From contig JAJCZA010000005.1 in assembly GCA_029262635.1 (NCBI GenBank), positions 535,135-599,134 on the forward strand: a stretch of 64,000 bases of DNA, in the 5' to 3' direction. Below the pieces are notes generated by a model, which saw nothing but the letters and a program-made list of their open reading frames with translations, ran no database searches and was not told the origin of the DNA. This document shows positions 1 to 21,956 of the stretch, in pieces (within the stretch, counting starts at the first letter, position 1; each line of letters opens with the position of its first letter). Origin of the DNA: Vampirovibrionales bacterium (GTDB lineage: Bacteria; Cyanobacteriota; Vampirovibrionia; Vampirovibrionales; Vampirovibrionaceae). The position numbers were made by a program, and so were the translations under genes.

Positions 1-63
1 CTAAAAAGGAAGCCTTATATTAATGATTCAATGGTTAGGTTTTAATGTTGGTGATTGGCCGTT

Positions 64-846
64 ATGGATGATAGAGAGTCGATTAATCATTTTTCGTCTT
101 TTATAGAACAGGCGAAAATTAAAGCGTCAGATCTGATGCCGTTTGAGGATTGGCTTGGAGGCCATGGCGCAAAAACGGTTGAACTCGGTGAGGGAAATTG
201 GCCTGAGAGGAATCGGGAAGGTAATCCTGTTTATATGCCGGACGTTTCTGGAGTGCTTCCTAAGAAACCTCTGGAATCTATGCAGGAACAGGTGGATGTT
301 CTCGCTGCGCATATGAAAAACCAGCTAGGCGAACACCAACAAGCGATTTCAAATACGGGCCGCCTTTTCGATCAGCTGCTTTGGGAGCTTGAAAACCTGT
401 GCATGTGCTTTCAGGAATCGTTATCATCGAAAGGAGTGCCGACGGACCAGATTTATTCCCGAATTGACCCGGATCGGTCTGTGGGGATTCTCAATGTGCT
501 ATGGCACACCGTGAGTTTTACGGCACGAGGGAACACAAGGCCGATGGCCATGTATCGCTTTGGACGAGAACCACTGTTTACCGGGCGTATTGTTGCATTA
601 AGGGGTGATTATCTTGAAATGACCAATGGTAATTTAATGCCCGAATTTTCAGAGTTGCTCTCCCAAGAAGTGGCATCACTTTATATTCCTTCCGAAGTAG
701 ATACACCAGCTGTTCTGAGTATTAAGCATCTTGGAGATGAGGAGCAGTACCTGAACCAAGGGGAAGCGGCTCGCCAGTTTTTGCTCAAGGTCATTGAGAT
801 GGTTTGCGCAGGCGGGTATTTTCACGAGAAAGAATATTACTCATAA
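64..846 (+). CDS. hypothetical protein (ORF track begins at TTG 55; first ATG at 64)
   Basis: long uninterrupted ORF with coding-like composition; no recognisable motif; start uncertain. Confidence 0.4.
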   Translation: MDDRESINHFSSFIEQAKIKASDLMPFEDWLGGHGAKTVELGEGNWPERNREGNPVYMPDVSGVLPKKPLESMQEQVDVLAAHMKNQLGEHQQAISNTGRLFDQLLWELENLCMCFQESLSSKGVPTDQIYSRIDPDRSVGILNVLWHTVSFTARGNTRPMAMYRFGREPLFTGRIVALRGDYLEMTNGNLMPEFSELLSQEVASLYIPSEVDTPAVLSIKHLGDEEQYLNQGEAARQFLLKVIEMVCAGGYFHEKEYYS

Positions 847-849
847 AAA

Positions 850-892
850 GACGAGCGGCTTGGCAAGGGGTTGGGCCGGTCTGCTTTTTAGA
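850..892. terminator. bidirectional rho-independent terminator between convergent genes
   Basis: imperfect GC stem gagcggc(853-859)/gccggtc(875-881) followed by TTTTT on + strand; A-run upstream gives a U-tract for the minus-strand transcript too. Confidence 0.4.
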
Positions 893-905
893 AACGAAGC
901 CCTTG

Positions 906-1850
906 CTATGCGGCAAAGAAACCTTGGTTAAAATTAAAGCTGGAATAAGCCGGGTTAGCGTAGTTAACAATCATTCCCGGGTTAATGGGGTTTAATACTA
1001 GGGCTGAGGCTTGACCTGCTGCTTGCGCGCCCAGGAAGCCAGCGTTGGCATTACCCCCTTGAGGGCCAATGGAGGTGATAAAAGTGCCAAATGGGCTAAC
1101 TAACCGACCACCGGCGCCACCTTGCCCTTGCATGTTGGTCATTTGTTGTTGGAATGGGTTAACGGGCCCAAATCCTGGCATACCGCCAGAGAGGGGCGAA
1201 TTTTGTTGTATACCCAGACCGGAGATAGCTTGTTGTGGATTTCGGCCTGTTAATTGATTCATGAGAAAGCTACCACCGCCGGTGGCGAGAAAATTCATGA
1301 AGTTGGATGTGTCGGGTCTGGCAACCGGGGCCGAAAAACCACCGGGCTGTCCGAAGCCAAAAGGTTGGGAAGGTTGAGCAAGGGCGGGTTGTCCGCCAAA
1401 CCCTTGAGTGGTGCCGTTAAGGCCGCCAAAGCCAAGTGGACTTGCTGTTCCTAAGCTTTGCCCCATACTGACTGGGTTTAGTAAGGAGTTACTAAAGGCC
1501 CCACCTTGCATCATGCTGGTTGGCGCTAATGGGTTGGGGTTTGGACCAAAGGAACCAAAAGGAGCCCCGTTAAAAGGATCATACGGTGTGACCTGAAGCG
1601 GGTTGAATGGATTGACCTGGCCAAACGAGTTCGGTTGGATTGGATTGAAGCGACCAAAGGGCTGAGCAAACGGTGAGGCAACACCCAAGCCATTGACGGT
1701 ATTTGCGGGTGTGATGGGTAAGGGACCTGCCAATGAGGTTGAAACACCCATGGGGCCGAGTGAGACATTGCCGTTGCCATTAACTGTTCCCGTGCCCATG
1801 CCAAACGGCGTTAATGAAAAGCCACTAGCGTTGTTGATAGGGAATGACAT
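906..1850 (-). CDS. Gly/Pro/Asn/Gln-rich low-complexity protein with FG-type motifs (PFG, GFG, FGQ), no signal peptide
   Basis: 945-nt ORF; SD GGAGGAG about 11 nt upstream of ATG at 1850; highly biased composition; antisense ORFs are Pro/Cys-rich artefacts. Confidence 0.6.
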   Translation of the reverse strand: MSFPINNASGFSLTPFGMGTGTVNGNGNVSLGPMGVSTSLAGPLPITPANTVNGLGVASPFAQPFGRFNPIQPNSFGQVNPFNPLQVTPYDPFNGAPFGSFGPNPNPLAPTSMMQGGAFSNSLLNPVSMGQSLGTASPLGFGGLNGTTQGFGGQPALAQPSQPFGFGQPGGFSAPVARPDTSNFMNFLATGGGSFLMNQLTGRNPQQAISGLGIQQNSPLSGGMPGFGPVNPFQQQMTNMQGQGGAGGRLVSPFGTFITSIGPQGGNANAGFLGAQAAGQASALVLNPINPGMIVNYANPAYSSFNFNQGFFAA

Positions 1851-2161
1851 AAATTGCTTACTCCTCCGACTCTAATCACACCTGATTACGGACAGATGTC
1901 GTCGCCTCTTTCTTTCTTTTCTTCTTCATCCATAGAAGGACGATCGAGCAGGGTCAATTAATTGTTTCACTTCTAACTCATATCTAACTAAAATAACAAT
2001 TCCACTGTTATTTCTTAGAATAATAAAAACAAAAGAATAGGGCAGATTGTCTTTTTCCCTGTTTTTATTAAATAAAAGTTACAAAGTACGGTTAAGCGAG
2101 AGTCTCTAAAAGACCCGGCTTGATTCGAGGAAGGATGGAAAGTGAGGGGTCAGGAGATTTT

Positions 2162-2524
2162 TTAATAATGTTCTTGTAAAGAAGATTCGATCATTTGAGC
2201 AATGGTTGGAATCAGGCTTTTTTGGAGATCGTCCGGAGTGTCCTGCAAGAGTTGCATGGCCGAATGAAGGGTTTCATTTAGGTCGTACCACCGGCGTCGC
2301 AGGATCTCGCTTTCAATGGACTCATGATGACACACGGCTTGGTTCAGGGTTTCAATGGGGTTTTGAGCTTCTGCTTCGGTTCGGTGCTCAATAACAATCT
2401 TAATAATATTGAGGGCGACCTGAGCCTGATATTTATCGGAGGCTTGGCGCAGTTGCTCTAACGCCTTACTCAAGGCAGGATCCTTGTCGTACCACCGTTG
2501 ATACTCTCCTGTATTTTCTGGCAT
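2162..2524 (-). CDS. hypothetical protein (120 aa)
   Basis: ORF with ATG; no motif recognised. Confidence 0.4.
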   Translation of the reverse strand: MPENTGEYQRWYDKDPALSKALEQLRQASDKYQAQVALNIIKIVIEHRTEAEAQNPIETLNQAVCHHESIESEILRRRWYDLNETLHSAMQLLQDTPDDLQKSLIPTIAQMIESSLQEHY

Positions 2525-2620: not shown

Positions 2621-2644
2621 AAAAAATTAAAAATTGTGGCATAT

Positions 2645-2718
2645 GGCATAGTAGCTCAGCTGGTTAGAGCACACGGTTCATACCCGTGCGGTCGGTGGTT
2701 CGAATCCACCCTATGCCA
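2645..2718 (+). tRNA. tRNA-Met (anticodon CAT; elongator-type or possibly tRNA-Ile2/lysidine; not initiator since 1:72 is G:C)
   Basis: manual cloverleaf: acceptor GGCATAG/CTATGCC, D-stem GCTC/GAGC, anticodon stem CACGG/CCGTG with loop TTCATAC, T-stem GGTGG/CCACC with TTCGAAT loop; 74 nt; CCA not encoded. Confidence 0.9.
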
Positions 2719-2759
2719 GTTTTTTATGACCCGTTTTATGAAAAGAAGAGGAGCCGATT

Positions 2760-3026
2760 TTGTCCACCCTACCACCACCTGCTTTAAAAACAGCGATTAT
2801 CCTGCTGTTTAAATCAGCACCTCCGTTTGTCCTTTATTCGGAACAGCCGGAGGCTCTTTATGAGGAATTGAAAGGTGTGATTCGTTCGGTCAATATGGCG
2901 TCACCCAAGCTGATTGAAAAACAGGGCCATGGTCCCATCAAGAAGGTGACGTTCCTCGATACCGAGTTATTGGGTGTGTCGCTCCAGATGGGGGTTGTTC
3001 CGCAGTTTCCGATGACCCAGGCCTAG
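2760..3026 (+). CDS. possible small hypothetical protein (88 aa, TTG start)
   Basis: ORF only; convergent with TPR gene; no SD or motif. Confidence 0.2.
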   Translation: MSTLPPPALKTAIILLFKSAPPFVLYSEQPEALYEELKGVIRSVNMASPKLIEKQGHGPIKKVTFLDTELLGVSLQMGVVPQFPMTQA

Positions 3027-6377: not shown

Positions 6378-7598
6378 TTAAACCTTTTCAACAATCGTGG
6401 CAATGCCTTGTCCGACGCCAATACACATGGTGGCTAGACCGTAGCGACAATTGTCCCGGCGCATCATCTCGTAAATTAGGGTGGTCATGATTCTTGCCCC
6501 ACTACATCCTAGTGGATGCCCGAGTGCGATAGCGCCTCCGTTGACATTAATTTTAGAGACGTCGGCACCCAGCTCCTGAATACAAGCTAATGATTGAGCG
6601 GCGAAGGCCTCGTTGAGCTCAATAAGGTCAATTTGTTCCAATGTTAGTCCTGCCCGTTTTAAGGCTTTACGGGTGGCGGGTACGGGCCCCAATCCCATGT
6701 AGGCTGGATTAACCCCAGCAACTGACGTTGATCGAATACGAACCTTTGGGGTTAGTCCAAGTTCAAGCGCTTTCGCTTCTGACATAACGAGCAAGGCGGC
6801 GGCGCCATCGTTAATGCCGGATGAGTTTCCTGCCGTAACGCTTCCTCCCTCTTTAAATGCCGGTTTTAACGTGTGTAGTTTTTCCAACAGGGTGTCTGGG
6901 CGGGGATGCTCATCCGTATCCACAATAATGGGATCTTTCTTTTTTTGAGGAATAGTGACTGGAATAATTTCGTCTTTAAACCGGCCTTCGCTCATGGCTT
7001 TGCCCGCTTTCTGCTGACTATCAAAGGCAAACTGATCCTGCGCTTCTTGGGAGAGTTGAAATTTTTCGGCCACGTTTTCGGCTGTTTCGCCCATGCCGTA
7101 AGGGTAGTGCAATTGAGCCAGCTTCGGGTTGGTGAACCGCCAGCCGATGGTCGTATCAAAGAGGTCTGTCTTCCGGGAAAAAGCGGTGGGTGCCTTGGCC
7201 AGAACAAACGGTGCGCGGGTCATGCTTTCTACACCACCTGCAATGTAACACTCCGCCTCACCGGCTATAATGGCGTGGCTGGCCTGATTAATGGCCATAA
7301 GGCCTGAGCCACAGAGTCGGTTTACAGTGCCGCCAGCAATGGTTTCCGGGAGTTCGGCGAGTAGGACCGCCATCCGGGCCACGTTTCGATTGTCTTCGCC
7401 TGCTTGATTGGCGGCACCTAGAATCACGTCTTCAATGAGCGTTGGGTCCAGTTGGGGGTTACGCCGAACCAGTTCTTTCAGGACCAGAGCCGCTAAATCG
7501 TCTGGACGAACCGAGGCCAAGCTACCGGAAAATCGACCGACCGGGGTTCGGATAGCGTCAACAATGACGGGCGTGGTTTCCGGGGTGGTCGGGTTCAT
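6378..7598 (-). CDS. 3-oxoadipyl-CoA/3-oxoacyl-CoA thiolase (PaaJ/PcaF-like)
   Basis: thiolase signatures NRLCGSGL (active Cys), GGVESM, C-terminal GLATMCIGVGQG; start overlaps upstream gene by 4 nt. Confidence 0.9.
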   Translation of the reverse strand: MNPTTPETTPVIVDAIRTPVGRFSGSLASVRPDDLAALVLKELVRRNPQLDPTLIEDVILGAANQAGEDNRNVARMAVLLAELPETIAGGTVNRLCGSGLMAINQASHAIIAGEAECYIAGGVESMTRAPFVLAKAPTAFSRKTDLFDTTIGWRFTNPKLAQLHYPYGMGETAENVAEKFQLSQEAQDQFAFDSQQKAGKAMSEGRFKDEIIPVTIPQKKKDPIIVDTDEHPRPDTLLEKLHTLKPAFKEGGSVTAGNSSGINDGAAALLVMSEAKALELGLTPKVRIRSTSVAGVNPAYMGLGPVPATRKALKRAGLTLEQIDLIELNEAFAAQSLACIQELGADVSKINVNGGAIALGHPLGCSGARIMTTLIYEMMRRDNCRYGLATMCIGVGQGIATIVEKV

Positions 7599-8401
7599 GA
7601 CGAGGTTTCCTCCAGTTCGGTCTTGCTACCTTCGTAAATATAGAAACCTTCGCCGGTTTTAACACCAAGCTTGCCGGAGCCAGCCATCTGCTTGAGTAGA
7701 AGCACCGGACGGTAACGGTCTTCAAAATATTCGTTGACTAATGTGTCGAGAATCTGACAGATAACGTCGATACCGATTTTATCGGCCCATGCCAGTGGAC
7801 CTTCCGGGTAGTTCGTACCCAGCTTCATGGCGGTGTCAATATCTTCAGGGCTCGCCACGCCTTCCATTACGGCAGAAGCCGCCTCATTAACGAGCATAGC
7901 AAGCACTCTAGGGAGAACCAGTCCGGGGGTGTCCGTAATTTCATAAGCCTTGACCTGAAGGGATTGGAACAGATTTTTAGCCTTGGCTAGCGCTTCAGGG
8001 TCGGTGGCCTTGGTGGGCGCGAACTCAATAACGTGACGGCCTTGATAAAAGGCCAGCGGAGAGTACATGATGAGCCGGGAGATTACTTCTCTGTCAAAGA
8101 AGGGAGTATCATAGGTGGTTGCATAGCCTGAGGTGCTAATGCCTGATAAGAGAACAATGGGATGATGCTCTTCAGATAGGGCTTCCAGAAATTCTGGAAG
8201 ACTATGGTAGTCCATCCAGCCGTGATGGCAAATAATAACAAAGTCGGGCAGTTCATGAGCCTCTAGGGGTTCTTCCGGGATACTTTCCACATCGTCAATG
8301 TCATCGTAAATATGAACCTGATGTCCTGCCGTGCGACAGAGACTGAAAAAGGTTTGGGTAATCACATCCTGGGGCTTGCCCAGCAGAAAAATTTTACTCA
8401 T
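7595..8401 (-). CDS. 3-hydroxyacyl-CoA dehydrogenase-like protein with degenerate NAD-binding and catalytic motifs
   Basis: C-terminal 3HCDH dimerisation domain intact (PGLVLPRVLAMLVNEA...), but N-terminal GxGxxG replaced by LLGKPQD and the HFFNP catalytic-His region replaced by MYSPLAF. Confidence 0.65.
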   Translation of the reverse strand: MSKIFLLGKPQDVITQTFFSLCRTAGHQVHIYDDIDDVESIPEEPLEAHELPDFVIICHHGWMDYHSLPEFLEALSEEHHPIVLLSGISTSGYATTYDTPFFDREVISRLIMYSPLAFYQGRHVIEFAPTKATDPEALAKAKNLFQSLQVKAYEITDTPGLVLPRVLAMLVNEAASAVMEGVASPEDIDTAMKLGTNYPEGPLAWADKIGIDVICQILDTLVNEYFEDRYRPVLLLKQMAGSGKLGVKTGEGFYIYEGSKTELEETSS

Positions 8402-8427
8402 GGTAAGGGCTGAACTTTCTCGATGGT

Positions 8428-9324
8428 CTAGGCTTTCTTTGAGTCGTAGGTGTAAAATCCCTGATTGGTTTTTCGTCCCAACAGGCCGGCATCAACCATG
8501 CGACGTTGAATAATATGGGGTTTATAACGAGGTTCGTGGAAATAAGCTTCATAAACAGACTGAGTTACGGCGAAGTTGACGTCCAGTCCGATGAGATCCA
8601 TTAGCTCGAAGGGTCCCATCTTAAAGCCACCAGCTTCTTTTAAGACTTCATCAATGGTCTCATGAGATGTCGCTTGTTCTCCCAGAAGTCGGAGAGCTTC
8701 ACCGTAAAAGGGTCGAGCCACTCGGTTCACAATAAAACCCGGTGTGTCTTTGGCGATAACCGGGGTTTTACCGACGGCCTGAGCGAATACTTTTAAGGTC
8801 TCAATGATACGGGGATCTGTTCGTTCGCCCCGGATAATTTCAACGAGTTTCATCAGAGGCACTGGGTTAAAGAAATGGAGACCTGCTATTCGATCCGGAT
8901 TTTTGGTTGCGCCCGCAATTTCAGTGACGGAGAGCGACGAGGTATTGGAGGATAAAATTGTCCCGTCGGGAGCTAAGGCATCTAGCTCTTGAAAGATCTC
9001 TTTTTTGAGAGCCATGTTTTCCGGCACGGCTTCAATCACCAAATCGCACTGAGCCGTCTCTTTAAGCTTTAGTGTGGTGATCAGGTTTTCGTTGACCCGC
9101 TGAAGGTCATCGTCCGTTAGCTTGCCTCGGGCCTTTCCTTTGGCTAGTGAGGTTTCAATCTGGGTACGGCCCCGTTTGAGGAAGTCTTCCTTAATATCAA
9201 ACAGAACCACCTGAAACCCCTTGAGAGCAGAAATTTGGCCAATCCCTGCTCCCATCGTACCGGCGCCAACAATCCCGACCCGTTTAATGGTTTCAACAGG
9301 AGGGGTATCAGTTTTTTTGCTCAT
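8428..9324 (-). CDS. 3-hydroxyacyl-CoA dehydrogenase (PaaH/Hbd-type)
   Basis: GIVGAGTMGAGI Rossmann motif, HFFNPVPLMKLVEI catalytic region, C-terminal 3HCDH domain. Confidence 0.9.
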   Translation of the reverse strand: MSKKTDTPPVETIKRVGIVGAGTMGAGIGQISALKGFQVVLFDIKEDFLKRGRTQIETSLAKGKARGKLTDDDLQRVNENLITTLKLKETAQCDLVIEAVPENMALKKEIFQELDALAPDGTILSSNTSSLSVTEIAGATKNPDRIAGLHFFNPVPLMKLVEIIRGERTDPRIIETLKVFAQAVGKTPVIAKDTPGFIVNRVARPFYGEALRLLGEQATSHETIDEVLKEAGGFKMGPFELMDLIGLDVNFAVTQSVYEAYFHEPRYKPHIIQRRMVDAGLLGRKTNQGFYTYDSKKA

Positions 9325-10099
9325 AGTAGGGGATCCATTCCGGCATGGTCAGTCCTGCGGCCAATACCTTTTCTTCAACTTCCTGACGGTATTCCATGCG
9401 AACCACGTGGTTATCGCGTTTTTTTAGGCCTAGTTTTACGTAGGTCTGGCATCCAGGGGCGTTAGGTCGACCAAAGATGTTCATGACCCGAGGGTACCAT
9501 TTATTGAGCCCTTCCTGAAGCTCAACTTTGGTGTCTGGACTAGCGGCCAGCCGTTTGAACCAGGTATCTCCATGGACGACGTGCATCATTTCTTCCTTGA
9601 AAATGCTTTTGAGGCCGCGCATCCAAGGGGCGTAGCTTGATTCCAGCGTGTCTTCCAGTTGATGTCCGGCTCCTCGGTCCATAAGGAAGTTAAATAGAAT
9701 AAAATCAGTCCAGCTTTCGATGGGATAATAAAAAATATTCACCCGTTTATCTTGGGTTAGCCTTTCACTGGTCAGCTCTTGGCCCGAAGGCATTCGGAAA
9801 TGGTAGTCATGTTGCTTAATATAGCTTTCCACGTCCATGCCAAGTTCGGCCAGTAGATTAAACATAGCGTAAGCATGACGAATTTCGTCCTTGACGATTT
9901 GGGCGACCAACACTTTCTCGTGGATATCCGGGGCTTTCTCAATCCATGGAATATAACCATAAGCACCAGCTAGTTCAGAGTCTGCTTGTTGAAGCAGGAG
10001 GTTTGTCAGCGCTGTTCGATACTCTTCAGACATGTCGTTATTGGCTTCAATTTTTTCACCTGCGTTGATTTTTTCTACAAATTCTTCTGCGGTTACCAT
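9308..10099 (-). CDS. PaaA/PaaC-family ferritin-like diiron protein (lone copy)
   Basis: aligns by eye to PaaA core (YRTALTNLLLQQADSELAG / KDEIRH / EEMMHVVHG, ExxH pairs conserved); 263 aa, shorter than PaaA; no paaB/C/D/E nearby. Confidence 0.65.
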   Translation of the reverse strand: MVTAEEFVEKINAGEKIEANNDMSEEYRTALTNLLLQQADSELAGAYGYIPWIEKAPDIHEKVLVAQIVKDEIRHAYAMFNLLAELGMDVESYIKQHDYHFRMPSGQELTSERLTQDKRVNIFYYPIESWTDFILFNFLMDRGAGHQLEDTLESSYAPWMRGLKSIFKEEMMHVVHGDTWFKRLAASPDTKVELQEGLNKWYPRVMNIFGRPNAPGCQTYVKLGLKKRDNHVVRMEYRQEVEEKVLAAGLTMPEWIPYYEQKN

Positions 10100-10122: not shown

Positions 10123-10962
10123 TTATTTTCCAGTGAACACGGCTTCCCGTTTATCGAGAAATGCAGAAACCCCTTCCTGGTAATCGGTGGTCTGGCCAGC
10201 GATCTCCTGGAGGTGGGCTTCATAGTCCAGATAGTTCTCTAAATCTGAGGTTAGTCCCTTATTCATGGCGCGTTTAATTAAGCCAATGGCTTTAGTGGGG
10301 CCTTTTCCAAGCGTCTGAGCTAACACATTAGTCTCTGTTTTTAGGGTTTCTGCCGGGTAAATCCTGTTGACTAGCCCGTAATCGAGGGCTACTTCTGCTG
10401 AAATCTTATTACCCAGTAAAGCCAGCTCCATGGCACGCCCCATACCAACGAGGCGAGGCAACGTCCAACAAGCGCCTGAATCAGGGATCAACCCTACTTT
10501 GACAAAGGCCTGAATAAAACTGGCTTTCTCCGAAGCAATGCGCAAATCGCAGGCGAAAGCGATACTGGCACCCGCACCAGCGGCCACCCCATTAACCATG
10601 GCAATGACGGGTTTTTCTAGGGTGCGCAGTTTTTGGATAATCGGGCTATAGCGCTTTCGAATAGAGTCGCCTAGATGAGGACTGTCTCCGTTACTGGCGG
10701 TAACGCTACGACTTTGAAGATCTTGTCCGGCACAAAAGCCTCGTCCGGCGCCCGTGAGGATAATACAGCGAACTGCTTGATTTCGCTCGGCGGATTTTAA
10801 TGCCTTTTGTAATTCGAAGCTGAGTTCGTCATTAAAAGCGTTCAGGCAGTCAGGGCGATTTAAGGTTAGGGTTAGCACACCCTCCGCATTGAGTTCTTCG
10901 AGTAACCACTGGGTTTCAGTTTTTGCTTGAGTCATTTCGATGCCTCCTATTGATGCTGCCAT
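10123..10962 (-). CDS. enoyl-CoA hydratase/isomerase, PaaG-like
   Basis: crotonase fold, LTLNRPDCLNAF, GFCAGQDL oxyanion-hole motif. Confidence 0.8.
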   Translation of the reverse strand: MAASIGGIEMTQAKTETQWLLEELNAEGVLTLTLNRPDCLNAFNDELSFELQKALKSAERNQAVRCIILTGAGRGFCAGQDLQSRSVTASNGDSPHLGDSIRKRYSPIIQKLRTLEKPVIAMVNGVAAGAGASIAFACDLRIASEKASFIQAFVKVGLIPDSGACWTLPRLVGMGRAMELALLGNKISAEVALDYGLVNRIYPAETLKTETNVLAQTLGKGPTKAIGLIKRAMNKGLTSDLENYLDYEAHLQEIAGQTTDYQEGVSAFLDKREAVFTGK

Positions 10963-11738
10963 TCGGCTGGACGCTTTTCCATGAAGGCGGTCATGCCCTC
11001 TTTCTGGTCTTGTGAGGCAAACAGCAGGTAGAACAGCTTGCGTTCGTAATCGAGTCCGCCTTCAATGGTGGTATCAAATGATTTTAAGATGGCTTCTTTC
11101 GCCAGTTTTACGGCGACACCGGGTTTGTTCGCAATGGTTTTAGCGAGGACTTTGGCTTCATCCAATACCACTTCATCGGGCACGACTTTCGTGATGAGTT
11201 CCATGTCGTAGGCTTCCTGGGCTCCAAACATGCGACCCGTAAGAATCAACTCCATAGCACGGGCTTTACCGATGGCGCGAGTCAATCGTTGGGTACCTCC
11301 CGCACCAGGAATAACACCAATACTGATTTCCGGCTGACCAAATTTAGCGCCTTCGCCGGCAATAATCATGTCGCACATCATGGCCAACTCACAGCCGCCA
11401 CCTAAGGCGAACCCATTAATAGCGGCAATGATCGGTTTCTTCAGTTTGCGGACTCGATCCCATCGAGCCAGTTGATCAATGAGCAACATGTCCACAGCGG
11501 ATTTATCAGCCATTCGCTTGATATCAGCCCCGGCGGCAAAGGCTTTGGCGTTGCCCGTCACAATCAGGCACCCGATGGTGTCATCGTTGTCAAACGTTTC
11601 CAGGGCGTCCACCAGTTCGACCATTAAGTCCGGGCTGATAGCATTCAGCACATCGGGCCGATTAAGCTGGACAATGCCGACCCGGCCGTCTTTTTGGGTC
11701 AAAATATATTGATATTCCGTTGTGGTAGTGGTTGCCAT
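10947..11738 (-). CDS. enoyl-CoA hydratase (crotonase/PaaF-like)
   Basis: GIVQLNRPDVLNA, AFAAGADIK, GGGCELAMMCD motifs. Confidence 0.85.
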   Translation of the reverse strand: MATTTTTEYQYILTQKDGRVGIVQLNRPDVLNAISPDLMVELVDALETFDNDDTIGCLIVTGNAKAFAAGADIKRMADKSAVDMLLIDQLARWDRVRKLKKPIIAAINGFALGGGCELAMMCDMIIAGEGAKFGQPEISIGVIPGAGGTQRLTRAIGKARAMELILTGRMFGAQEAYDMELITKVVPDEVVLDEAKVLAKTIANKPGVAVKLAKEAILKSFDTTIEGGLDYERKLFYLLFASQDQKEGMTAFMEKRPAEWQHQ

Positions 11739-12632: not shown

Positions 12633-12968
12633 TTAATAAACTCCTGCGCCTTCAATGGTGGATACTTCGGATGTCACCATGGTGACGTATTTTGAGGCAA
12701 AGCTCATAAGGTTATCCCCGGCAGCCTGACCTTCTGGTGATTTTAACGCGTTTTTTAGTGCGTCCATACTATCAAAGGTGAGTTCAGCGACCATATAATG
12801 AGGTAGGTCACCGCCCATCATGTTTTTAGTGAGCTTGGATACTTCAACACGAGCTAATCCTGGCATTTTTTGAGCTAATGGCAAGTGGGTCTCAAAGTAT
12901 TGGCGGTCAAAATCTTCCGGATTATCCGGTTGGGAGTAGAAAGCAAAGAGTTTTGCGGCTTTTGACAT
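12633..12968 (-). CDS. EthD/Dabb-like small alpha+beta barrel protein
   Basis: 111 aa; first gene of the operon; SD GGAGGG upstream of ATG 12968; tentative family call. Confidence 0.45.
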   Translation of the reverse strand: MSKAAKLFAFYSQPDNPEDFDRQYFETHLPLAQKMPGLARVEVSKLTKNMMGGDLPHYMVAELTFDSMDALKNALKSPEGQAAGDNLMSFASKYVTMVTSEVSTIEGAGVY

Positions 12969-13108
12969 GGTTTAAATACCCTCCAGGCCGACATAATCGG
13001 CTCTCTCTGATTGAATGACAAACCAGTATGACACCTGATTTGCGCCTATTTTGTCACAAACGAAACAGAGAATCAAAAGAAATACCCGTGGACAGGTAGG
13101 AGCGTTTT

Positions 13109-14416
13109 TTATTTGGAATAGCTTTCGGCCACCAGCTCAATGGGGTGTGCTATGCGCATGGGGTTGGCGTTTTCCTGAAGCCCTTTGGTAATTTGAAGAA
13201 GGCAACCAGGGTTACCCGTGACCAGTGTTTGAGCTTGAGTCGCTTCGATGTGCCGAATTTTTTCCGCCAAGATGTCATTACTCAGCTCCGGGTGTTCCAA
13301 ATTATAGATGCCCGCACTGCCGCAGCAAAAAGCAGCGTCTTTTAATGGGAGGAGGGTGAGTCCTTCGATCTGGTGGAGAACGTTTTCAGGTTCGTTAATA
13401 ATACCCTGAGCATGGTGTAGGTGGCAGGCGGCATGGTAAGCTACGGTTTGGGGTATGGGAAGGCGACAAGGCTTTAAGGGTTTTTTGGCTAATAGAGCCA
13501 TGATATCTACGGTTTTTTCTGAGAAAAGGCGAGATTTTTCAGCGTAGATTCCGTCATTGGCCAGTAGTTTCGTATAGTCTTTTAGCGTGGATCCGCATCC
13601 GGCCGAATTAGTGATAACCCAGTCGGGTTGGGATCTTAAAATGGAAAGCACGTTTTTCCGAGCCAGTTTTTTTGCAATGTCGTCTTCCCCGCCATGGTAG
13701 GCCAGTGCACCACAACAGGTTTGTTCTGGGAGTGTGACGTAATAACCGTTATTGACCAATGCCTTAATGGTCGCCCAATGGACAGAGTTATACATGACAT
13801 CCATGATACAGCCTGTGAATAAAGCGACACGTTCGTGTTCAGGGTTTCCAAACGACATGCCGATGTTAAATGGTTTGTGTTGGGGGATGGGAGGAATAAG
13901 CGCTTCGTAATGTTGAATTAGTGGGAGGAGGCTTAGGACATTTGAAAATCGGACAAGACGTTGAAGTCCGGCTTTTTGATACAGACGAAGCCAGAAGGCC
14001 CCAAACTGAAGTAAGTTGGAGTTGGGTAGAACTGTTTGAAAGAAAAAGCGCTTGAGATGGCGAATGAACGGATTTTTCTGGGTTAAGAACATCTTTTGGG
14101 ACTGATGAAGAATATCGCCGTAGGGCACCCCGGAAGGACAAGCTGTTTCACAGGCGAGGCAACCGAGGCACTGGCTCAGGTGAGGTTCTATTTGCTTTGG
14201 CTGGAGATGCTCGTTGGGCTCGTCTGATTCGTTTTTAGCGTCCTGTAACATGTGCTTTAACAGGTAAAGTCGGCCTCGAGGAGATTCTACCTCGGAGCCA
14301 GTTACCTTATAAGTGGGGCAAACGGGTAGGCAGAAACCACAGTGAATACACGATTTCAACGAATTCAGCAGACTGTTTGTGGAAGGTAGAGGTGTTGAGG
14401 GTTCAGAAAAGGTCAT
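13109..14416 (-). CDS. glcF: glycolate oxidase iron-sulfur subunit GlcF-type (2x[4Fe-4S] + two CCG domains)
   Basis: CIHCGFCLPVCP and CLGCLACETACP ferredoxin motifs; CCG-domain motifs TCCGALAYHGG and AFCCGSAG. Confidence 0.85.
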   Translation of the reverse strand: MTFSEPSTPLPSTNSLLNSLKSCIHCGFCLPVCPTYKVTGSEVESPRGRLYLLKHMLQDAKNESDEPNEHLQPKQIEPHLSQCLGCLACETACPSGVPYGDILHQSQKMFLTQKNPFIRHLKRFFFQTVLPNSNLLQFGAFWLRLYQKAGLQRLVRFSNVLSLLPLIQHYEALIPPIPQHKPFNIGMSFGNPEHERVALFTGCIMDVMYNSVHWATIKALVNNGYYVTLPEQTCCGALAYHGGEDDIAKKLARKNVLSILRSQPDWVITNSAGCGSTLKDYTKLLANDGIYAEKSRLFSEKTVDIMALLAKKPLKPCRLPIPQTVAYHAACHLHHAQGIINEPENVLHQIEGLTLLPLKDAAFCCGSAGIYNLEHPELSNDILAEKIRHIEATQAQTLVTGNPGCLLQITKGLQENANPMRIAHPIELVAESYSK

Positions 14417-15690
14417 GAGCTGGACGATTCCTTTGTGTGAGAAGGGCTTGAAAAGACCAGGTGACGAGAGTGTAAGATATTATGCGGATCATACAGGGCT
14501 TTTAGTTGGTACATCAAGGCTTGAGCGACTGGGTCGTTAGGCAGGTTTAGTTTTTGAGTTAGGCTGAGAAAATCGGAGGGAAAGTCCAGTAGCTGGAGAT
14601 GCCCGCCTTGGTTCTGGGCTAATTTAGCCAGTTGCTTTAAAGGTTGTTTGAGTTTGGTCAATTGGGGCATATTGTCGGGCTGCCATATCAGGTGTACAAA
14701 CCCAGCGGCAAGACGAAGCTGGATGGGGTAGCTTTTGACTTCCGGGAACAAGGACTCAATTTCTTTTAGTGTTTTTCGTAAGGCGGACAAACCTTTGGGT
14801 ATGGTCAGACGAAGGAGGTGGGACTGATCCAGATGTGTCCGCTTTAGAAAAGATCGGGTTGTCTGGCTTGAGGTCGGTTTTGGGTTGCCCAGACAAGCTT
14901 TCAGTTCAGCCTCCAGCGTGCTGAATGAGTTTTTGGTTCCCTGCGCTCGGATCCAGAGTGCCCAGGATTCTTTTTGAAATAGTTCGCAGGCCGTGAGTTG
15001 GTGTCGGTGTTGATGAAGCCAGGGGAGCAAATCTTCCAGCCACGGGTGATGGGGTGACGAAACATAAAAGCCCCAGTCTTGAGTGGCCTCGGGTAGTGGA
15101 GCTAGTTTGAGGGTGACAGCGGTAATGACTCCCAGCGTATGATGGCTCCCGGTGTAGAATTTATTGAGGTCATATCCGGTGACGTTTTTAACCACCTCGC
15201 CACCGTAATGGGTGATTTCTCCATCGGGTGTTACCATTTCCAGGCCCAGCACGTAATCTCGAGGGTAACCGCCTGAAAGCCCTGTTTCCGCCGCTGGGCG
15301 GTCCTGAGCGATGACATCGGCGAGTAAGAGATCGTCCGGGTAGCTTAAGGGGAACTGTTGGCCTTGACTCGCGAGGGTTTGTCTTAGTTCACCCATGGTA
15401 ATGCCGGTTTCTACGGTAATGATTAGGTCATTTATTCGGTGGTTTCTAATGGTTTTTAGGTGTTTCATGTTCATCCAGAGGGGGTGTTCCATTAGTAGAG
15501 CGTCGTTATAGTTTAGAGAGAGAGGCCTCTTTTGTTGAACGGATATATGGAGGAGCTGGGCAACTTGTTCCACCTTGTTGGGGGTGAGAATGAACCCTTC
15601 GGTCTGGATGTCACCAATGGATAATGGTTGAATGACGGATGAGCTTTCCAGGGCTTCCAGTTCTTGGGTTGAAAGATCCATTAAATCCAT
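14413..15690 (-). CDS. glcE: glycolate oxidase FAD-binding subunit GlcE-type (with about 150-aa C-terminal extension)
   Basis: PCMH-type FAD-binding domain; 4-nt overlap with glcF, 10-nt overlap with glcD. Confidence 0.75.
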   Translation of the reverse strand: MDLMDLSTQELEALESSSVIQPLSIGDIQTEGFILTPNKVEQVAQLLHISVQQKRPLSLNYNDALLMEHPLWMNMKHLKTIRNHRINDLIITVETGITMGELRQTLASQGQQFPLSYPDDLLLADVIAQDRPAAETGLSGGYPRDYVLGLEMVTPDGEITHYGGEVVKNVTGYDLNKFYTGSHHTLGVITAVTLKLAPLPEATQDWGFYVSSPHHPWLEDLLPWLHQHRHQLTACELFQKESWALWIRAQGTKNSFSTLEAELKACLGNPKPTSSQTTRSFLKRTHLDQSHLLRLTIPKGLSALRKTLKEIESLFPEVKSYPIQLRLAAGFVHLIWQPDNMPQLTKLKQPLKQLAKLAQNQGGHLQLLDFPSDFLSLTQKLNLPNDPVAQALMYQLKALYDPHNILHSRHLVFSSPSHTKESSSS

Positions 15691-17090
15691 GCGCCTCCTG
15701 TGGTTAATAAGGGATTGCTGATGGAAAGGTGTGTTTCACCACAACCAGCTCGGATAGGAAATATTTTAAGGGGGTTAGACAGTTGCTGAGGGTCGAAAGC
15801 GGCTTTAATTTGTTTCATCTTGTTCAAGTCGGCCTCGGAAAACAGACGGGACATATATTTGGATTTTTCAATGCCAATGCCGTGTTCGCCACTCAGGACA
15901 CCGCCTGCTTGAAGGCAAACGTCTAAAATCTCCTCACCTCCTTTTAAAATCCGTTGGAGCATATCAGCATCGTCCGGGTCGAACAGGATATTGGGGTGTA
16001 GGTTGCCGTCGCCGGCATGGAAGACATTGCCGATAAGGATTTGGTGCTTTTTGCCAATGGCCAAAATCTTTTTCAGTACAGAGGTGAGCTCACTGCGTGG
16101 AATCACCGTATCGTGAAGATAAAAGGCGGGTTGGAATCGTCCGTAAGCGGCAACTGCACCTTTTCGAGCGGCCCAAATGGCTTGCCGATCTTCGGCGGTC
16201 TGAGCGGAACGGGTCTGCTGGGCGTTATTCTCCGAGAGGATGGCCATGAGTCGGTCTTCCTGATCCAGAACAACATGGAGGGTTCCGTCCAGCTCAATGA
16301 GAAGAACGGCTTCGCTGTCTTCAGGAAAGCCAATGTCATAAGCCTGATTAACGGCTTTGACCGTAAAGGCATCCATAAATTCCAGTGCGGATGGGATAAG
16401 GCCGCTGGCGATAATCTGAGATACAGCGTTTCCTGCCGATTCAATGGTGGAAAACGTCGCGAGATAAGCACGAATTTCTGTGGGCTTGGGGGTTAGTTGA
16501 ACGGTGGCTTGGGTGATAATGCCCAGCGTGCCTTCGGATCCGACTAACAGACCAATTAAATTCAAACCATGAGAAGAACGGGTTTTTCCACCGAGTCGGG
16601 TTATTTTACCATCTGGAAGGACGACTTCCAGTGCCAGAATATGATCCGTGGTGACGCCGTATTTAATACAGTGGATGCCACCAGCATTTTCCGCGATATT
16701 CCCGCCGAGGGTGCAGGCAGACTGGCTCGAGGGGTCGGGGGCATAGAACAGCCCGGTTGCCTCTAATGCTTGATTTAGGTGGGCGTTAACGACGCCCACT
16801 TCCACCGTGGCGGTGTGGTTCTCCGTGTCGATTTCCAGAATCTGATCCATGCGGTTTAGGCTGATGAGAACGCCGCCCTTTAAGGGAAGCGCACCGCCGG
16901 ATAGCCCGGTTCCCGCACCCCGAGCTGTAAAAGGGATTTTATGGGTGTGGCAAAAGCTAACCACCTGACTGACTTCTTGTGTGGTCTTGGGGAGTACCAC
17001 AATTTCCGGGGCGTTTTTTATCAGCAGGCAGGCGTCACATTCGTAGGCAATAAGTTCTTCCGGGCCGTCAAGAACAAAGCGGTGACCCAC
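15681..17090 (-). CDS. glcD: glycolate oxidase subunit GlcD (FAD-linked oxidase)
   Basis: FAD_binding_4 plus FAD-oxidase C-terminal domain (GTLGIIT, HAGDGNLHPNI). Confidence 0.9.
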   Translation of the reverse strand: MGHRFVLDGPEELIAYECDACLLIKNAPEIVVLPKTTQEVSQVVSFCHTHKIPFTARGAGTGLSGGALPLKGGVLISLNRMDQILEIDTENHTATVEVGVVNAHLNQALEATGLFYAPDPSSQSACTLGGNIAENAGGIHCIKYGVTTDHILALEVVLPDGKITRLGGKTRSSHGLNLIGLLVGSEGTLGIITQATVQLTPKPTEIRAYLATFSTIESAGNAVSQIIASGLIPSALEFMDAFTVKAVNQAYDIGFPEDSEAVLLIELDGTLHVVLDQEDRLMAILSENNAQQTRSAQTAEDRQAIWAARKGAVAAYGRFQPAFYLHDTVIPRSELTSVLKKILAIGKKHQILIGNVFHAGDGNLHPNILFDPDDADMLQRILKGGEEILDVCLQAGGVLSGEHGIGIEKSKYMSRLFSEADLNKMKQIKAAFDPQQLSNPLKIFPIRAGCGETHLSISNPLLTTGGAWI

Positions 17091-19360: not shown

Positions 19361-19470
19361 AACTTATTTTAAATGTAACAAAACTGCAATATTAACAAGC
19401 ACCAAGAGCAATCTTAATAAAATATTTGTTTTTATATAAATAGCATATGTAAAACAGGCAAAAAGAGAGC

Positions 19471-19634: not shown

Positions 19635-21956
19635 ATGATTAATCCCCTTTTTAACAACTACCAAACAGCGAGATCCTTCCAGATGAATCCGGGAGTGTAT
19701 CAGCTTCCGACCCAGGCCCAGCCGCTCGCTTTTCAGCAGCCTCAGTTTCAAGGCCAACAGGCTGTGGGGCAACAAGCTTTAGGGCAGCCTCAAGGGGCTC
19801 AAATGATGAACATGATGCTCCAAATGATGAGCATGTTGCTTCAAGTGCTTCAACAACAATTTAATCCGGGAGGCCAAAAACCTTTAGGCCAACAGCCAAA
19901 TGCTGCTGCAGGCAATGCGGGTAATGCAGGTAATGCAGGTAATAGTGGCGCTCTTGGTGGAGCTCCTGCTGCTGCCGGTAATGCAGGTAACGCGGGCAAT
20001 AGTGGTGGTATTTATGGCACCCCTGCCGCTGCAGGCAATGCGGGTAATGCAGGTAACGCAGGTAATAGTGGTGCTCTTGGTGGAGCTCCTGCCGCTGCCG
20101 GTAATGCAGGTAACGCGGGCAATAGTGGTGGTATTTATGGCACCACTGCCGCTGCAGGCAATGCGGGTAACGCAGATAATGGTGGAGCTCCTGTTGATGC
20201 AGGTAACGCAGGTAATGGTGCTGGTGTTTATGATGCTCCCGGTGGTGCTTACGGTGCTCCCGGCGGAGCCCCTCCTGCAGGTGATGCAGGCAATGGTGTT
20301 GGTAATGACGGTACGCAACCTTATCTACAGACCGACGCCGAAGATGCCGTGGATTATATCTTAGCTCAGACCCAAGGTGGTACCAGTGGCGTAAACGAAG
20401 CCATTGAAGGTCGCTTTGCCCGGGACGGTTCCCGATTTGCAACGGCAGGTGCTAATGAGTTTGATGCGGCGATCGTGTCGAATTATGCGGCCCAATTTAA
20501 AGCGTTTGCTCTTGGAAAGGATCCTAAATTCGATCCGGGTGTTGATGATGTTAGAACCATTGCCAATAACATTACCGAAGCGCAACAAGTTCAATTTACA
20601 CCGGAAGCGGAACTCTTATCCAAGGTGGCTGCGGTTTACCGGGGCGAGATGACCGGTAGCGTAAACGAGTATGACAACAATGCCCTGAGAAATGTTCTAC
20701 TTCAGTTTAACCGGGGTGACATTGCCAATACAGACGGTGTCGGCCAGTTTGACGTTCAGTCAATTGGTGGTGTGGTCAAAATGCTCAATGAAGAGCAAGA
20801 CCCGGCGCTTCGTCAGCAAATGCTTCAGCAGGTTTTTGACTTCCAGGGGAACTCTCCCTCCAGTCCAAGTGGAGCGGTTCCTCAGCTCGGTGCTTATCAG
20901 CGAGCCGTTGATGTGGTTCGAAACGGTACCATTGATGGCTTATTGAATAACTATGCCAATGGTGTTCAGACCACCCAGCCTCTTTACAATGGCCCGGCAA
21001 ATCCAAATGGCGAGCCTGTTTCAGGGGCAGTTAACCGGAATATTGATTTTCAGGCCCTGAGTACGCAAGATCGAACTGCTCTTGGACTCAATGACCGTGA
21101 TCGAGCTGTTCTCCATCTATATGGTCGTCAAATGATTTCTCAAGGGTTTCAGGATGGCGGTATCTACACTAATATTCTGGATAACAACACGGGTACCGCT
21201 GCGGAACAACAATTAGTTGCGGAACTTCGGGCAAGAGATCAAGCCCAGTTTGGTGTGGATACTGGTGTTGCGTTGGATGAAGAGTTTTTTGCTCTCCATC
21301 AACGACTCACGGGTGAAGATTTATCGACCCGATATGCCAACCGGCAGGTCAATGCTTCACAAGGTGCCATTAATATTGTTAACGATCTGGATCAGCTCCA
21401 GCAAAAGACAGGTTTATCCACGTTTGAGCAGTCTATCTTAAGACTCTATGGCCACGAACCCTTAATGAACGGCGGAAAAATTGATGGCTCCAGTCTCGCT
21501 TATACCATTGCCAACAGTAATGCATTAGATAGTGACGCAAAATCGGGTGGAAATGGTATTGATACTCAAGCTCAGACGTTACTGGAGCTTGATCTTGCTC
21601 GGGATGGTGTTGTCAACGGCGATGCGTTAAGCATTGGTTTTACTGGCGCATTAGATAAGCTTTATCTGGGTACAGAGGGTGTGACCGAACAAGGTCTGCA
21701 GCAAACCGTTATGAATCAAGCCGCTCAACTTGGCCGGACCACTCAACAAATTGGTCAAGATGTGTCTCGGGGTGTCGATGCTGCCATTGGTCAAGCAACT
21801 CAACTCGTTAAGGATCACCCAGTCACTTCCGTTGCCGCTGCAGGTGGACTAGCCGCCGCTACAGCTGTATGCCCTTACCTTGGTGGGTTAGGCGCATCGG
21901 GTGTCGCCGCAACATTTGGTGGCCCTCAGGCCGGAGGTAATGGTATTCCAGTCTAA
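19635..21956 (+). CDS. large low-complexity protein: Q-rich N-terminus, (GNA)n tandem repeats, about 580-aa C-terminal region of unknown function; no signal peptide
   Basis: ATG 19635 with SD AAGGGA 6 nt upstream (ORF track start 19611 is TTG); long ORF; antisense His/Tyr-rich ORFs are artefacts. Confidence 0.7.
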   Translation: MINPLFNNYQTARSFQMNPGVYQLPTQAQPLAFQQPQFQGQQAVGQQALGQPQGAQMMNMMLQMMSMLLQVLQQQFNPGGQKPLGQQPNAAAGNAGNAGNAGNSGALGGAPAAAGNAGNAGNSGGIYGTPAAAGNAGNAGNAGNSGALGGAPAAAGNAGNAGNSGGIYGTTAAAGNAGNADNGGAPVDAGNAGNGAGVYDAPGGAYGAPGGAPPAGDAGNGVGNDGTQPYLQTDAEDAVDYILAQTQGGTSGVNEAIEGRFARDGSRFATAGANEFDAAIVSNYAAQFKAFALGKDPKFDPGVDDVRTIANNITEAQQVQFTPEAELLSKVAAVYRGEMTGSVNEYDNNALRNVLLQFNRGDIANTDGVGQFDVQSIGGVVKMLNEEQDPALRQQMLQQVFDFQGNSPSSPSGAVPQLGAYQRAVDVVRNGTIDGLLNNYANGVQTTQPLYNGPANPNGEPVSGAVNRNIDFQALSTQDRTALGLNDRDRAVLHLYGRQMISQGFQDGGIYTNILDNNTGTAAEQQLVAELRARDQAQFGVDTGVALDEEFFALHQRLTGEDLSTRYANRQVNASQGAINIVNDLDQLQQKTGLSTFEQSILRLYGHEPLMNGGKIDGSSLAYTIANSNALDSDAKSGGNGIDTQAQTLLELDLARDGVVNGDALSIGFTGALDKLYLGTEGVTEQGLQQTVMNQAAQLGRTTQQIGQDVSRGVDAAIGQATQLVKDHPVTSVAAAGGLAAATAVCPYLGGLGASGVAATFGGPQAGGNGIPV
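19902..20186 (+). repeat. in-frame tandem repeat, 123-bp unit (41 aa AAAGNAGNAGNAGNSGALGGAPAAAGNAGNAGNSGGIYGTP) x2.3, near-identical copies
   Basis: units 19902-20024, 20025-20147, partial 20148-about 20186; only a few synonymous/one T-to-P differences. Confidence 0.85.

Follow-up and report, generated by a model that had tools for sequence, protein, structure and literature searches.

GLFG-type FG nucleoporin domains are disordered and are expected to be cohesive through contacts between phenylalanine residues. The curlin repeat of curli subunits has the form SX5QXGXGNXAX3Q and occurs in several copies. Harpins are described as glycine-rich, cysteine-free, and signal-less (PMC12854069), and a disordered glycine-rich protein of tick cement phase-separates and then solidifies (PMC11794139). 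Here we compare with these systems a gene at positions 906 to 1850 (minus strand) of a 64,000-nucleotide stretch of a Vampirovibrionales genome (contig JAJCZA010000005.1; the window). The original prediction, made from the letters of this DNA, described the 314-residue product as a signal-less, nucleoporin-like protein composed almost entirely of low-complexity sequence with recurring FG-type motifs. It also raised the possibility of a host- or prey-associated lifestyle, and the organism does belong to a predatory lineage. Vampirovibrio chlorellavorus, a flagellated bacterium that also has type IV pili and a type IV secretion system (T4SS), attaches to its prey by way of a "pad of unknown composition" (PMC4451040). 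The composition of the attachment pad of such epibiotic predators has been unknown since the 1970s (PMC4451040).

We find that the gene is real and strongly conserved and that its product has conserved, predicted beta-structured ends around a hypervariable loop. Our preferred reading, to which we give a probability of roughly 35%, is that the protein is a self-associating, cohesive structural or adhesive protein that does not use the Sec pathway and is possibly part of the predator attachment pad.

Results

The open reading frame (ORF) was uninterrupted over 314 codons, its translation was exactly the product quoted in the original prediction, and the protein matched P0001 at 100%. As the ORF begins at the first start codon after a stop, there is no in-frame start further upstream, and the strong Shine-Dalgarno sequence that had been predicted was present (Table 1). 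In comparisons of the C-terminal module with orthologues, synonymous sites were near saturation and non-synonymous differences amounted to 2 to 6% (proportions of differing sites, pN 0.022 and pS 0.68 for locus L010 and pN 0.056 and pS 0.86 for locus L003). This low pN beside a near-saturated pS indicated that the frame is under strong purifying selection. A chance ORF in compositionally skewed non-coding DNA would explain the odd composition and nothing else; the frame and both end modules are kept in orthologues down to about 40% identity, and the ORF is preceded by a Shine-Dalgarno sequence and a conserved element. The alignment of orthologues and the pN and pS values refuted such an origin, the probability of which we consider negligible. 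Absence of the ORF from relatives had been named as an outcome that would undo the prediction, and this ground for doubt was removed by the homologues and the measured selection.

The family is small. A word-indexed search of 5.8 billion proteins detected 15 relatives and HMMER, run exhaustively over 1.84 billion cluster representatives, detected 21, giving about 30 distinct sequences in all, two fragments included; the homologue search that had been proposed thus yielded a family conserved in relatives. A profile search with the C-terminal module gave only four fragments. A genome scan of GTDB detected two loci with the family and the JGI metagenome contigs one, and no relatives were found in viral contigs. 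All of the named sources were Vampirovibrionales, namely, one Vampirovibrio sp. metagenome-assembled genome (MAG) and one Vampirovibrionales MAG. The members of a more distant clade were about 40% identical to the target, and since the PheT proteins of those genomes were 50% identical to that of the window, they probably belong to the same class as the window organism. No match to Pfam, NCBIfam, or PHROGs was detected for the target or its two neighbors, none of 15 family members matched Pfam at an E value of ≤5, the PDB contained no sequence or fold match for the target, and no publication on the protein was found in the literature. The target represents an uncharacterized orphan family: its sequence, fold, and apparent regulon are unfamiliar, and structural proteins with folded ends and low-complexity sequence are a familiar kind.

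Alignments and region-wise identities divided the chain into four parts (aa 1 to 45, 46 to 105, 106 to 235, and 236 to 314), of which the first showed moderate conservation. An AlphaFold2 (AF2) model was built with a 15-sequence alignment. Beta strands were predicted for aa 8 to 40 and 246 to 298 with a predicted local distance difference test (pLDDT) score of 76 to 88, and all residues from aa 46 to 230 scored below 50. The N-terminal module (pLDDT about 81) was modeled as four short strands (E8-14, E17-23, E27-32, and E35-40) and the C-terminal module (pLDDT 76 to 88) as strands E246-252, E255-271, E274-286, and E294-298. The C-terminal module has the consensus SPFGTFITSIGPxGGNANAGFLGAQAxGQAxA..NPINPGMIVxYANPxYSSFNFNQGFFAA. 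Its [ST]P[FLY]G anchor always lies exactly 63 residues from the C terminus, and the distance between the N- and C-terminal anchors varies from 174 to 347 aa across the family. At 0.40, the overall predicted template modeling score (pTM) is higher than the C-terminal module, with its roughly 60 of the 314 residues, could account for by itself, an indication that the N- and C-terminal strands are placed together as one body. An internal duplication relating the two modules, hinted at by tblastn, was not supported by hhalign (probability 1.7%; P = 0.029).

The second part, aa 46 to 105, has the consensus TPANTVNxLGxASPFA..NSFGQxNPFxP..TPxD..FGSFG and contains a family-wide NP(F/Y) motif, with a second NPF conserved in the close clade. 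Its identity was 92 to 93% to the near-identical P0002 and P0003 and 48 to 73% to the more divergent homologues P0004 to P0015 (43% to P0012), for which the linker was 14 to 28% identical. In the distant clade, aa 46 to 105 and 236 to 314 were 48 to 58% identical to the target and the loop was 14 to 21% identical. The conserved modules, aa 1 to 105 and 236 to 314, make up about 45% of the chain. Given the strong conservation and predicted structure of both ends, the description of the protein as almost entirely low complexity did not hold: the target is not uniformly disordered, and the loop at aa 106 to 235 alone is hypervariable.

No tandem repeats were detected at the DNA level in the window copy. 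The loops of relatives contain 48- and 54-nt tandem repeats, i.e., units of 16 and 18 aa, of the QQQAFGxPGGFAQQPI and LPQQALAGGMxGLAGNT types; further members have Met/Gly/Phe-rich or GGxPGFGG repeats, and abductin-like GGxNFGMMGG repeats occur in some relatives, as in P0027. In three loci of one Vampirovibrionales MAG (L003, L004, and L005), the orthologue is split inside the loop into a 177-aa N-terminal half and a 187-aa C-terminal half, and matching halves from a second organism were present (P0016 and P0007). The arrangement of stop codon, Shine-Dalgarno sequence, and start codon at the junction points to translational coupling and not to a sequencing error. Each half keeps one conserved module and its own copy of a semi-conserved F(M/I)SFLQxGGGSFLMNQ element. 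The natural split implies that the two modules can work as separate polypeptides, and it is the pattern expected if they associate non-covalently.

Table 1. Coordinates of the target gene, its protein regions, and associated features (window positions unless a locus is named)
Feature	Position	Strand	Basis or detail
Coding sequence, 314-aa nearly uncharged G/P/N/F/S/Q-rich protein	906..1850	-	ORF and translation; stop codon 906..908
C-terminal beta module, aa 236-314	909..1145	-	Most conserved family part; AF2 strands
Hypervariable loop, aa 106-235, F/G/Q/P/M-rich	1146..1535	-	Semi-conserved FMNFLATGGGSFLMNQL at aa 184-200; AF2 pLDDT 32-45
Conserved Pro/Asn/Phe-rich segment, aa 46-105	1536..1715	-	Region identities; AF2 pLDDT below 50
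N-terminal beta module, aa 8-40, TPFG..GxGxV..GPMGVSTS	1731..1829	-	AF2 and conserved block in alignments A1 and A3
Shine-Dalgarno GGAGGAG	1861..1867	-	10 nt before target ATG, read from sequence
Probable long AT-rich 5' leader	1851..2022	-	Inferred from element position
Promoter/operator-like element CAATCT-N11-TTGTTTTTAT	2023..2049	-	About 175 nt upstream of target ATG
Short convergent intergenic region with terminator-like hairpins	856..919	.	Pattern scan
Second element copy CAATCT-N11-TTGTTTTTAT	19409..19435	+	About 200 nt upstream of 19635 gene
Putatively co-regulated partner, 773-aa signal-less protein (19635 gene)	19635..21956	+	Translation; same upstream element
Split orthologue halves	L003 7455..7988 and 8001..8564	same frame	TAA, then AAGGAG, then ATG; also L004 and L005

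The predicted composition was confirmed by counting (G, 17.5%; P, 11.8%; N, 10.2%; F, 9.2%; S, 8.6%; A, 8.6%; Q, 8.0%). The whole chain has just six charged residues (4 R and 2 D), and K, E, H, C, and W do not occur. At 1.9% charged residues versus a median of 23%, the target was the most extreme outlier among 49 window ORFs, the next lowest being a Yip1 membrane protein (7.9%); charged residues make up 0.8 to 9% of family members. The FG-type motifs that had been noted are present (11 FG, 5 PFG, 4 GFG, 2 FGQ, and 2 NPF), and the FG dipeptide was 2.2-fold enriched over composition-matched shuffles (11 observed versus 5.1 expected; P = 0.0065). These motifs recur at a density of ~1 FG per 28 aa but not as tandem repeats, and several lie within the conserved modules. 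The prediction of a signal-less protein was also upheld: the highest 19-residue Kyte-Doolittle mean was 0.99, so that the protein has no hydrophobic or membrane segment, and on inspection the N terminus had neither a basic n-region nor a hydrophobic h-region of a Sec signal.

These features bear on where the protein acts. A cytoplasmic scaffold, in which the loop would form a condensate or gel such as a polar or storage body and the beta modules would oligomerize or bind clients, fits the sticker-and-spacer composition of the loop, the absence of a signal peptide or recognizable export signal, and the lack of adjacent secretion genes in the loci examined. We nevertheless consider it unlikely. 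A charge content this far outside that of the soluble proteins of the window would favor irreversible aggregation, conserved ends around a hypervariable, repeat-expanding middle are more typical of surface-exposed polymers, and the promoter element is common to collagen-like (GNA)n repeat proteins (see below). Export is favored over a cytoplasmic location because a protein with 1.9% charge is expected to aggregate in the cytoplasm. The near absence of charge, the lack of Cys, the conserved ends with a repeat-expanding middle, and the strong ribosome-binding site with a dedicated promoter together favor an exported polymer or matrix protein.

A variant of the structural reading is a functional amyloid or beta-fibril subunit, whose C- and N-terminal modules would stack in cross-beta fashion with the loop decorating the fiber. 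The long predicted beta hairpins of small residues (E255-271 and E274-286), the invariant C-terminal length, the Gly/Asn/Ala/Gln-rich C-terminal module (GGNANAG..GAQAAGQASA), and a composition that, in its few charges and lack of Cys, resembles that of curli and Fap subunits would suit such a protein. A test for curlin repeats gave one loosely similar stretch in the target (QGGNANAGFLGAQ) and no Pfam match, and neither Curlin_rpt nor any other Pfam family matched in the 15 members. There is no series of imperfect repeats, the duplication of the N- and C-terminal modules was unsupported, no Sec signal is present, and no csgB/E/F/G-like or fap-like genes were found in the neighborhood; the genes next to the target are unrelated to csgEFG-type secretion genes. 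On balance, a fibril subunit of this kind appears unlikely. Type I substrate features of the RTX (repeats-in-toxin) kind were also absent, with two Asp in the whole target, no RTX Pfam match, and no adjacent genes for ATP-binding cassette or membrane fusion proteins. No Gly-every-third-residue run was read from the target sequence, and the flagellar axial domains Flagellin_N/C and Flg_bb_rod gave no Pfam match, the target termini being predicted as beta and not helical. The target falls outside the curli, RTX, collagen-like, and flagellar axial proteins.

The nucleoporin-like appearance raised the question of a translocated effector that would mimic eukaryotic motifs in algal prey, through FG motifs acting on nuclear transport receptors or NPF motifs acting on EH-domain endocytic proteins. 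The uncharged GLFG-nucleoporin-like composition, the FG enrichment, the NP(F/Y) motif kept throughout the family in aa 46 to 105 with its second NPF in the close clade, and the T4SS of this predatory lineage are in its favor. The strongest conservation, however, lies in the beta modules and not in FG or NPF motifs. The FG motifs are sparse and are unenriched in several members, there are only two NPF motifs, no basic T4SS-type C-terminal signal was detected in the target (4 Arg in total), and eukaryotic prey would have to be assumed for the distant-clade organisms. We regard an effector of this type as highly improbable. Of the likeness to nucleoporins, the composition stood, the loop being closest to uncharged GLFG domains, and mimicry beyond composition was not supported.

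Regulation of the gene was examined through its flanks. The long AT-rich flanking regions that had been described were present on the upstream side, where the intergenic region is 311 nt long (GC about 0.36), but downstream just 59 nt separate the target from the convergent gene. The predicted terminator was weak. A scan detected a 7-bp hairpin overlapping the target stop codon, the better of the hairpins, which has a T-run, belongs to the convergent gene on the plus strand, and the minus-strand RNA fold was no better than shuffles (z = -0.8), so that an intrinsic terminator for the target was unconvincing.

Upstream of the target lies a promoter/operator-like element (Table 1), and its consensus, CAAT(T/C)N-N11-TTGTTTTTAT, preceded the orthologue in each of the eight other loci, the two from the distant clade among them. 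The distance from element to ATG was 46 to 49 nt in the distant clade and 83 to 194 nt in the close clade, a variation that fits a promoter with a variable leader; leaders of 46 to 194 nt among the orthologues had no conserved structure. Three copies of the exact decamer of the element occur in the window (at the target, 2032..2023 on the minus strand; at 19426..19435; and one inside a gene). A position weight matrix (PWM) was built without the window from six other genomes, together with a seven-site version. The top match in the window, on both strands, was the site upstream of the 19635 gene (34.6 bits with six sites and 33.9 bits with seven), and the target site scored 25.3 to 27.5 bits, ranking second (25.3 bits, six sites). 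All other sites in the 128 kb formed by both strands reached ≤14.8 bits with the six-site PWM, the next unrelated match being at 13 to 15 bits, and the maxima of shuffled windows were 7 to 17 bits.

The same element was detected upstream of homologues of the 19635 gene in L013 (24.7 bits) and L019 (30.3 bits) and, in L019, upstream of a gene for a 567-aa (GNA)n-repeat protein (25.7 bits). It was weak or absent in L015 and absent at the Myxococcaceae homologue locus. In L007, a second copy at 9693 (minus strand; 28.3 bits) faces away from the target and precedes a 79-aa basic ORF with a GTG start (9385..9624); this copy may mark a divergent promoter or a small regulator. The element would mark out a small set of co-regulated orphan low-complexity proteins, and this regulon can be mapped genome-wide. 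It may be a specific regulon signal, its arms, ACAAT..ATTGT, being operator-like in several loci.

The 19635 protein has an N-terminal Q-rich region of 230 aa with GNAGNAGN runs and 3% charged residues, an all-alpha domain at aa 230 to 728 (AF2 pLDDT about 90), and a hydrophobic Gly/Ala tail with a conserved CPFLGG. An internal repeat was seen in the alpha domain (DRDRAVLHLWGRQ.. / FENxVLRLWGH..). No PDB fold or Pfam match was found for this protein, which gave a weak SclB-like match and represents a separate orphan family with some homologues in Myxococcota MAGs; no secretion system lay near the homologues in Myxococcaceae and another MAG. The original prediction had linked the two genes by the resemblance of their N termini. 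That resemblance was weak and anecdotal, and the link now lies in the shared upstream element. The proposed search for a shared N-terminal secretion motif gave little: candidate motifs common to both families ([FI]NP[VL], FPIN versus [NQ]P[LI]) recur but are weak, and they carry little weight because both proteins are N/P-rich anyway.

The 567-aa protein of L019 (13548..15251, minus strand) is signal-less and consists largely of (GNA)n Gly-X-Y triplets. In L015, a 621-aa signal-less (GNA)n protein (12886..14751, plus strand) with a Pfam Collagen match (1.3e-7) is encoded directly downstream of a 19635-protein homologue. A G/N/S-rich signal-less protein with a HELVH metallopeptidase-like motif and a weak DUF6782 match (L016, 1015..1959, plus strand; L015, 9008..9661) is encoded upstream of a 19635-protein homologue, with a CesT-type chaperone gene about 5 kb downstream of that homologue.

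In five Vampirovibrionales loci, the gene order was thiolase, Yip1, hypothetical protein, LptC, TPR protein, tRNA-Met, a 112- to 127-aa acidic helical protein, and the target, followed by a convergent gene for a 219- to 263-aa protein, UDP-glucose dehydrogenase, and one to three flagellins. The flagellin genes, whose products match Flagellin_N/C, lie 3 to 4 kb from the target. This proximity, together with the flagellin-like pattern of conserved termini, variable center, no Cys, and no Sec signal, would be consistent with an accessory structural part of the flagellum or of another lineage-specific motility or attachment organelle. We consider this distinctly unlikely. No flagellar Pfam domain was detected, the termini are predicted to be beta and not coiled-coil, the unrelated UDP-glucose dehydrogenase gene and the convergent gene intervene, and in the distant clade the gene is no longer linked to flagellins. 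The flagellins have sigma-28-like promoters and the target does not; co-regulation of the target through sigma-28 was rejected, as it has no TAAAG-N16-CGATA-like promoter.

At the first flagellin gene, there is a TAAAG-N16-CGATA promoter of sigma-28-like type and a conserved leader with a hairpin presenting ACGGA and then an AAGGAG Shine-Dalgarno sequence, resembling a CsrA site (L009, about 6990-7100; L010, about 10270-10379; L003, about 10980-11090; beyond the left edge of the window). The second and third flagellins have a different common motif, TTTTGTTGATCAGGCAWAGAGAG. A CsrA/FliW link was dropped, since the small ORFs adjacent to the flagellins had no CsrA, FliW, FlaG, or FliS matches, and the GGA motifs in the leader were not conserved.

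The two genes flanking the target were rejected as dedicated partners; as they are absent beside the distant-clade genes, we regard their position as synteny and not as a sign of functional partnership. The 120-aa neighbor (2162..2524, minus strand) is acidic and apparently helical, with a duplicated RWYD motif, and the 263-aa neighbor (55..846, plus strand) has a conserved core, GILNxLWHTxSFTARGN..REPLFTGRIVA..FLLKxIEMVCxGGxFHEK; neither had a family match. The tRNA-Met (CAT) gene (2644..2719, plus strand) lies between the TPR and 120-aa genes and is followed by a conserved 84- to 88-aa ORF (2760..3026), also present in relatives. Elsewhere in the window, three genes at 13109..17090 (minus strand) encode FAD_binding_4/FAD-oxidase_C and CCG/4Fe-4S domains and resemble glycolate oxidase GlcDEF. 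The remainder of the window is housekeeping (a ClpB/C-type ATPase, GlnA, IleRS, PheT, GcpE, and radical-SAM enzymes).

Discussion

The reading that we prefer is of a structural protein restricted to Vampirovibrionales and near relatives and made of three kinds of part. The N- and C-terminal beta modules, both under very strong purifying selection, may form one small folded unit or may pair between molecules. The Pro/Asn/Phe-rich segment at aa 46 to 105 probably becomes ordered only upon assembly or binding, and the expandable, uncharged Phe/Gly/Gln/Pro/Met loop would supply cohesion through aromatic "stickers" and flexible spacers, in the manner of GLFG nucleoporin domains, elastomeric proteins, and animal cements rich in glycine. 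Expression would be driven by a dedicated, conserved promoter/operator common to the 19635 family and the (GNA)n collagen-like proteins. The protein would then be exported by a non-Sec route, for which a candidate is the type III apparatus of the flagellum, which this lineage encodes close by, and would self-associate into a cohesive extracellular or surface material; the attachment pad between predator and prey is an example of a site where such a material could act.

Several observations weigh against this proposal. The AF2 model has only 15 sequences behind it and a mean pLDDT of 51.5. Some family members, for instance P0012, P0007, and P0008, show no FG enrichment. Secretion-system, chaperone, and assembly genes are not consistently adjacent to the target in the loci examined, synteny with the neighboring 120-aa and 263-aa genes is confined to the close clade, and in the distant clade the target is not near flagellar genes; its promoter element, furthermore, differs from the sigma-28-type flagellin motif. 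A weaker match to the element also precedes an aspartokinase gene in L006, and the element could be a near-consensus strong promoter of this lineage rather than the signal of a specific regulon. Under either interpretation, the element singles out the target and the 19635 gene together among about 55 genes of the window.

A bolder version, which we regard as a long shot, is that a predatory bacterium makes an FG/Q-type cohesive extracellular hydrogel or cement for the attachment pad or feeding junction on algal prey. The split-capable beta modules would cross-link this material, and the loop would provide a meshwork by analogy with the permeability barrier of the nuclear pore or arthropod glycine-rich cement, and the co-regulated collagen-like (GNA)n proteins would help to build the pad. 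Alternatively, the FG and NPF motifs could act on transport receptors inside the prey.

If the structural or adhesive reading is true, this family and the co-regulated signal-less repeat proteins would supply the first candidate molecules for a Vampirovibrio-type attachment pad and could be used as targets or markers for the protection of algal cultures. The family would also exemplify, among prokaryotes, cohesive proteins that act through Phe stickers, carry almost no charge, and are very strongly selected. The natural two-gene split, with halves such as P0006 and P0008, offers a ready-made complementation experiment.

Like the collagen-like proteins of the Scl and BclA class, some genes marked by the element encode Gly-X-Y proteins of the (GNA)n type, but the target itself has no Gly-X-Y periodicity, and the (GNA)n repeat proteins have neither LPXTG nor a signal peptide and their repeats lack proline. 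The G/N/Q/A/S-rich beta strand-turn-strand pattern, with few charges and no Cys, is shared with the curli and Fap subunits CsgA and FapC; unlike these, the target lacks a Sec signal and a series of repeats, matches neither Curlin_rpt nor Fap, and has no dedicated genes for secretion or nucleation in its neighborhood.

Harpins of the HrpN/HrpZ class resemble the target in its Gly content (17.5%), the absence of Cys and of a Sec signal, and their origin in a Gram-negative bacterium attacking walled photosynthetic eukaryotes. Harpins differ in being acidic and partly helical, the target being uncharged and having beta ends. No Pfam, NCBIfam, or sequence match to HrpN, HrpZ, Hpa1, and others was detected, and no injectisome type III secretion system was seen in the loci examined; the likeness is descriptive only.

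The GLFG nucleoporins (Nup98/Nup100/Nup116 class) are likewise nearly charge-free, G/N/Q/F/S-rich, and enriched in FG, a likeness based on composition. They differ in that the target is bacterial, with no detectable homology and no nucleoporin domain (Pfam, E ≤ 5, 15 members), has a lower FG density (11 in 314 aa), lacks tandem repeats in the window copy, and is under selection mainly in two beta modules that are absent from nucleoporin FG domains. With elastomeric and adhesive proteins, the analogy is one of architecture and composition only and not of homology, the target being much shorter and prokaryotic. Like spidroins, abductin, and resilin, it has conserved terminal modules around an expandable G/Q/P/F/M-rich core, and the glycine-rich protein of tick cement offers a parallel as a phase-separating attachment material of an ectoparasite (PMC11794139).

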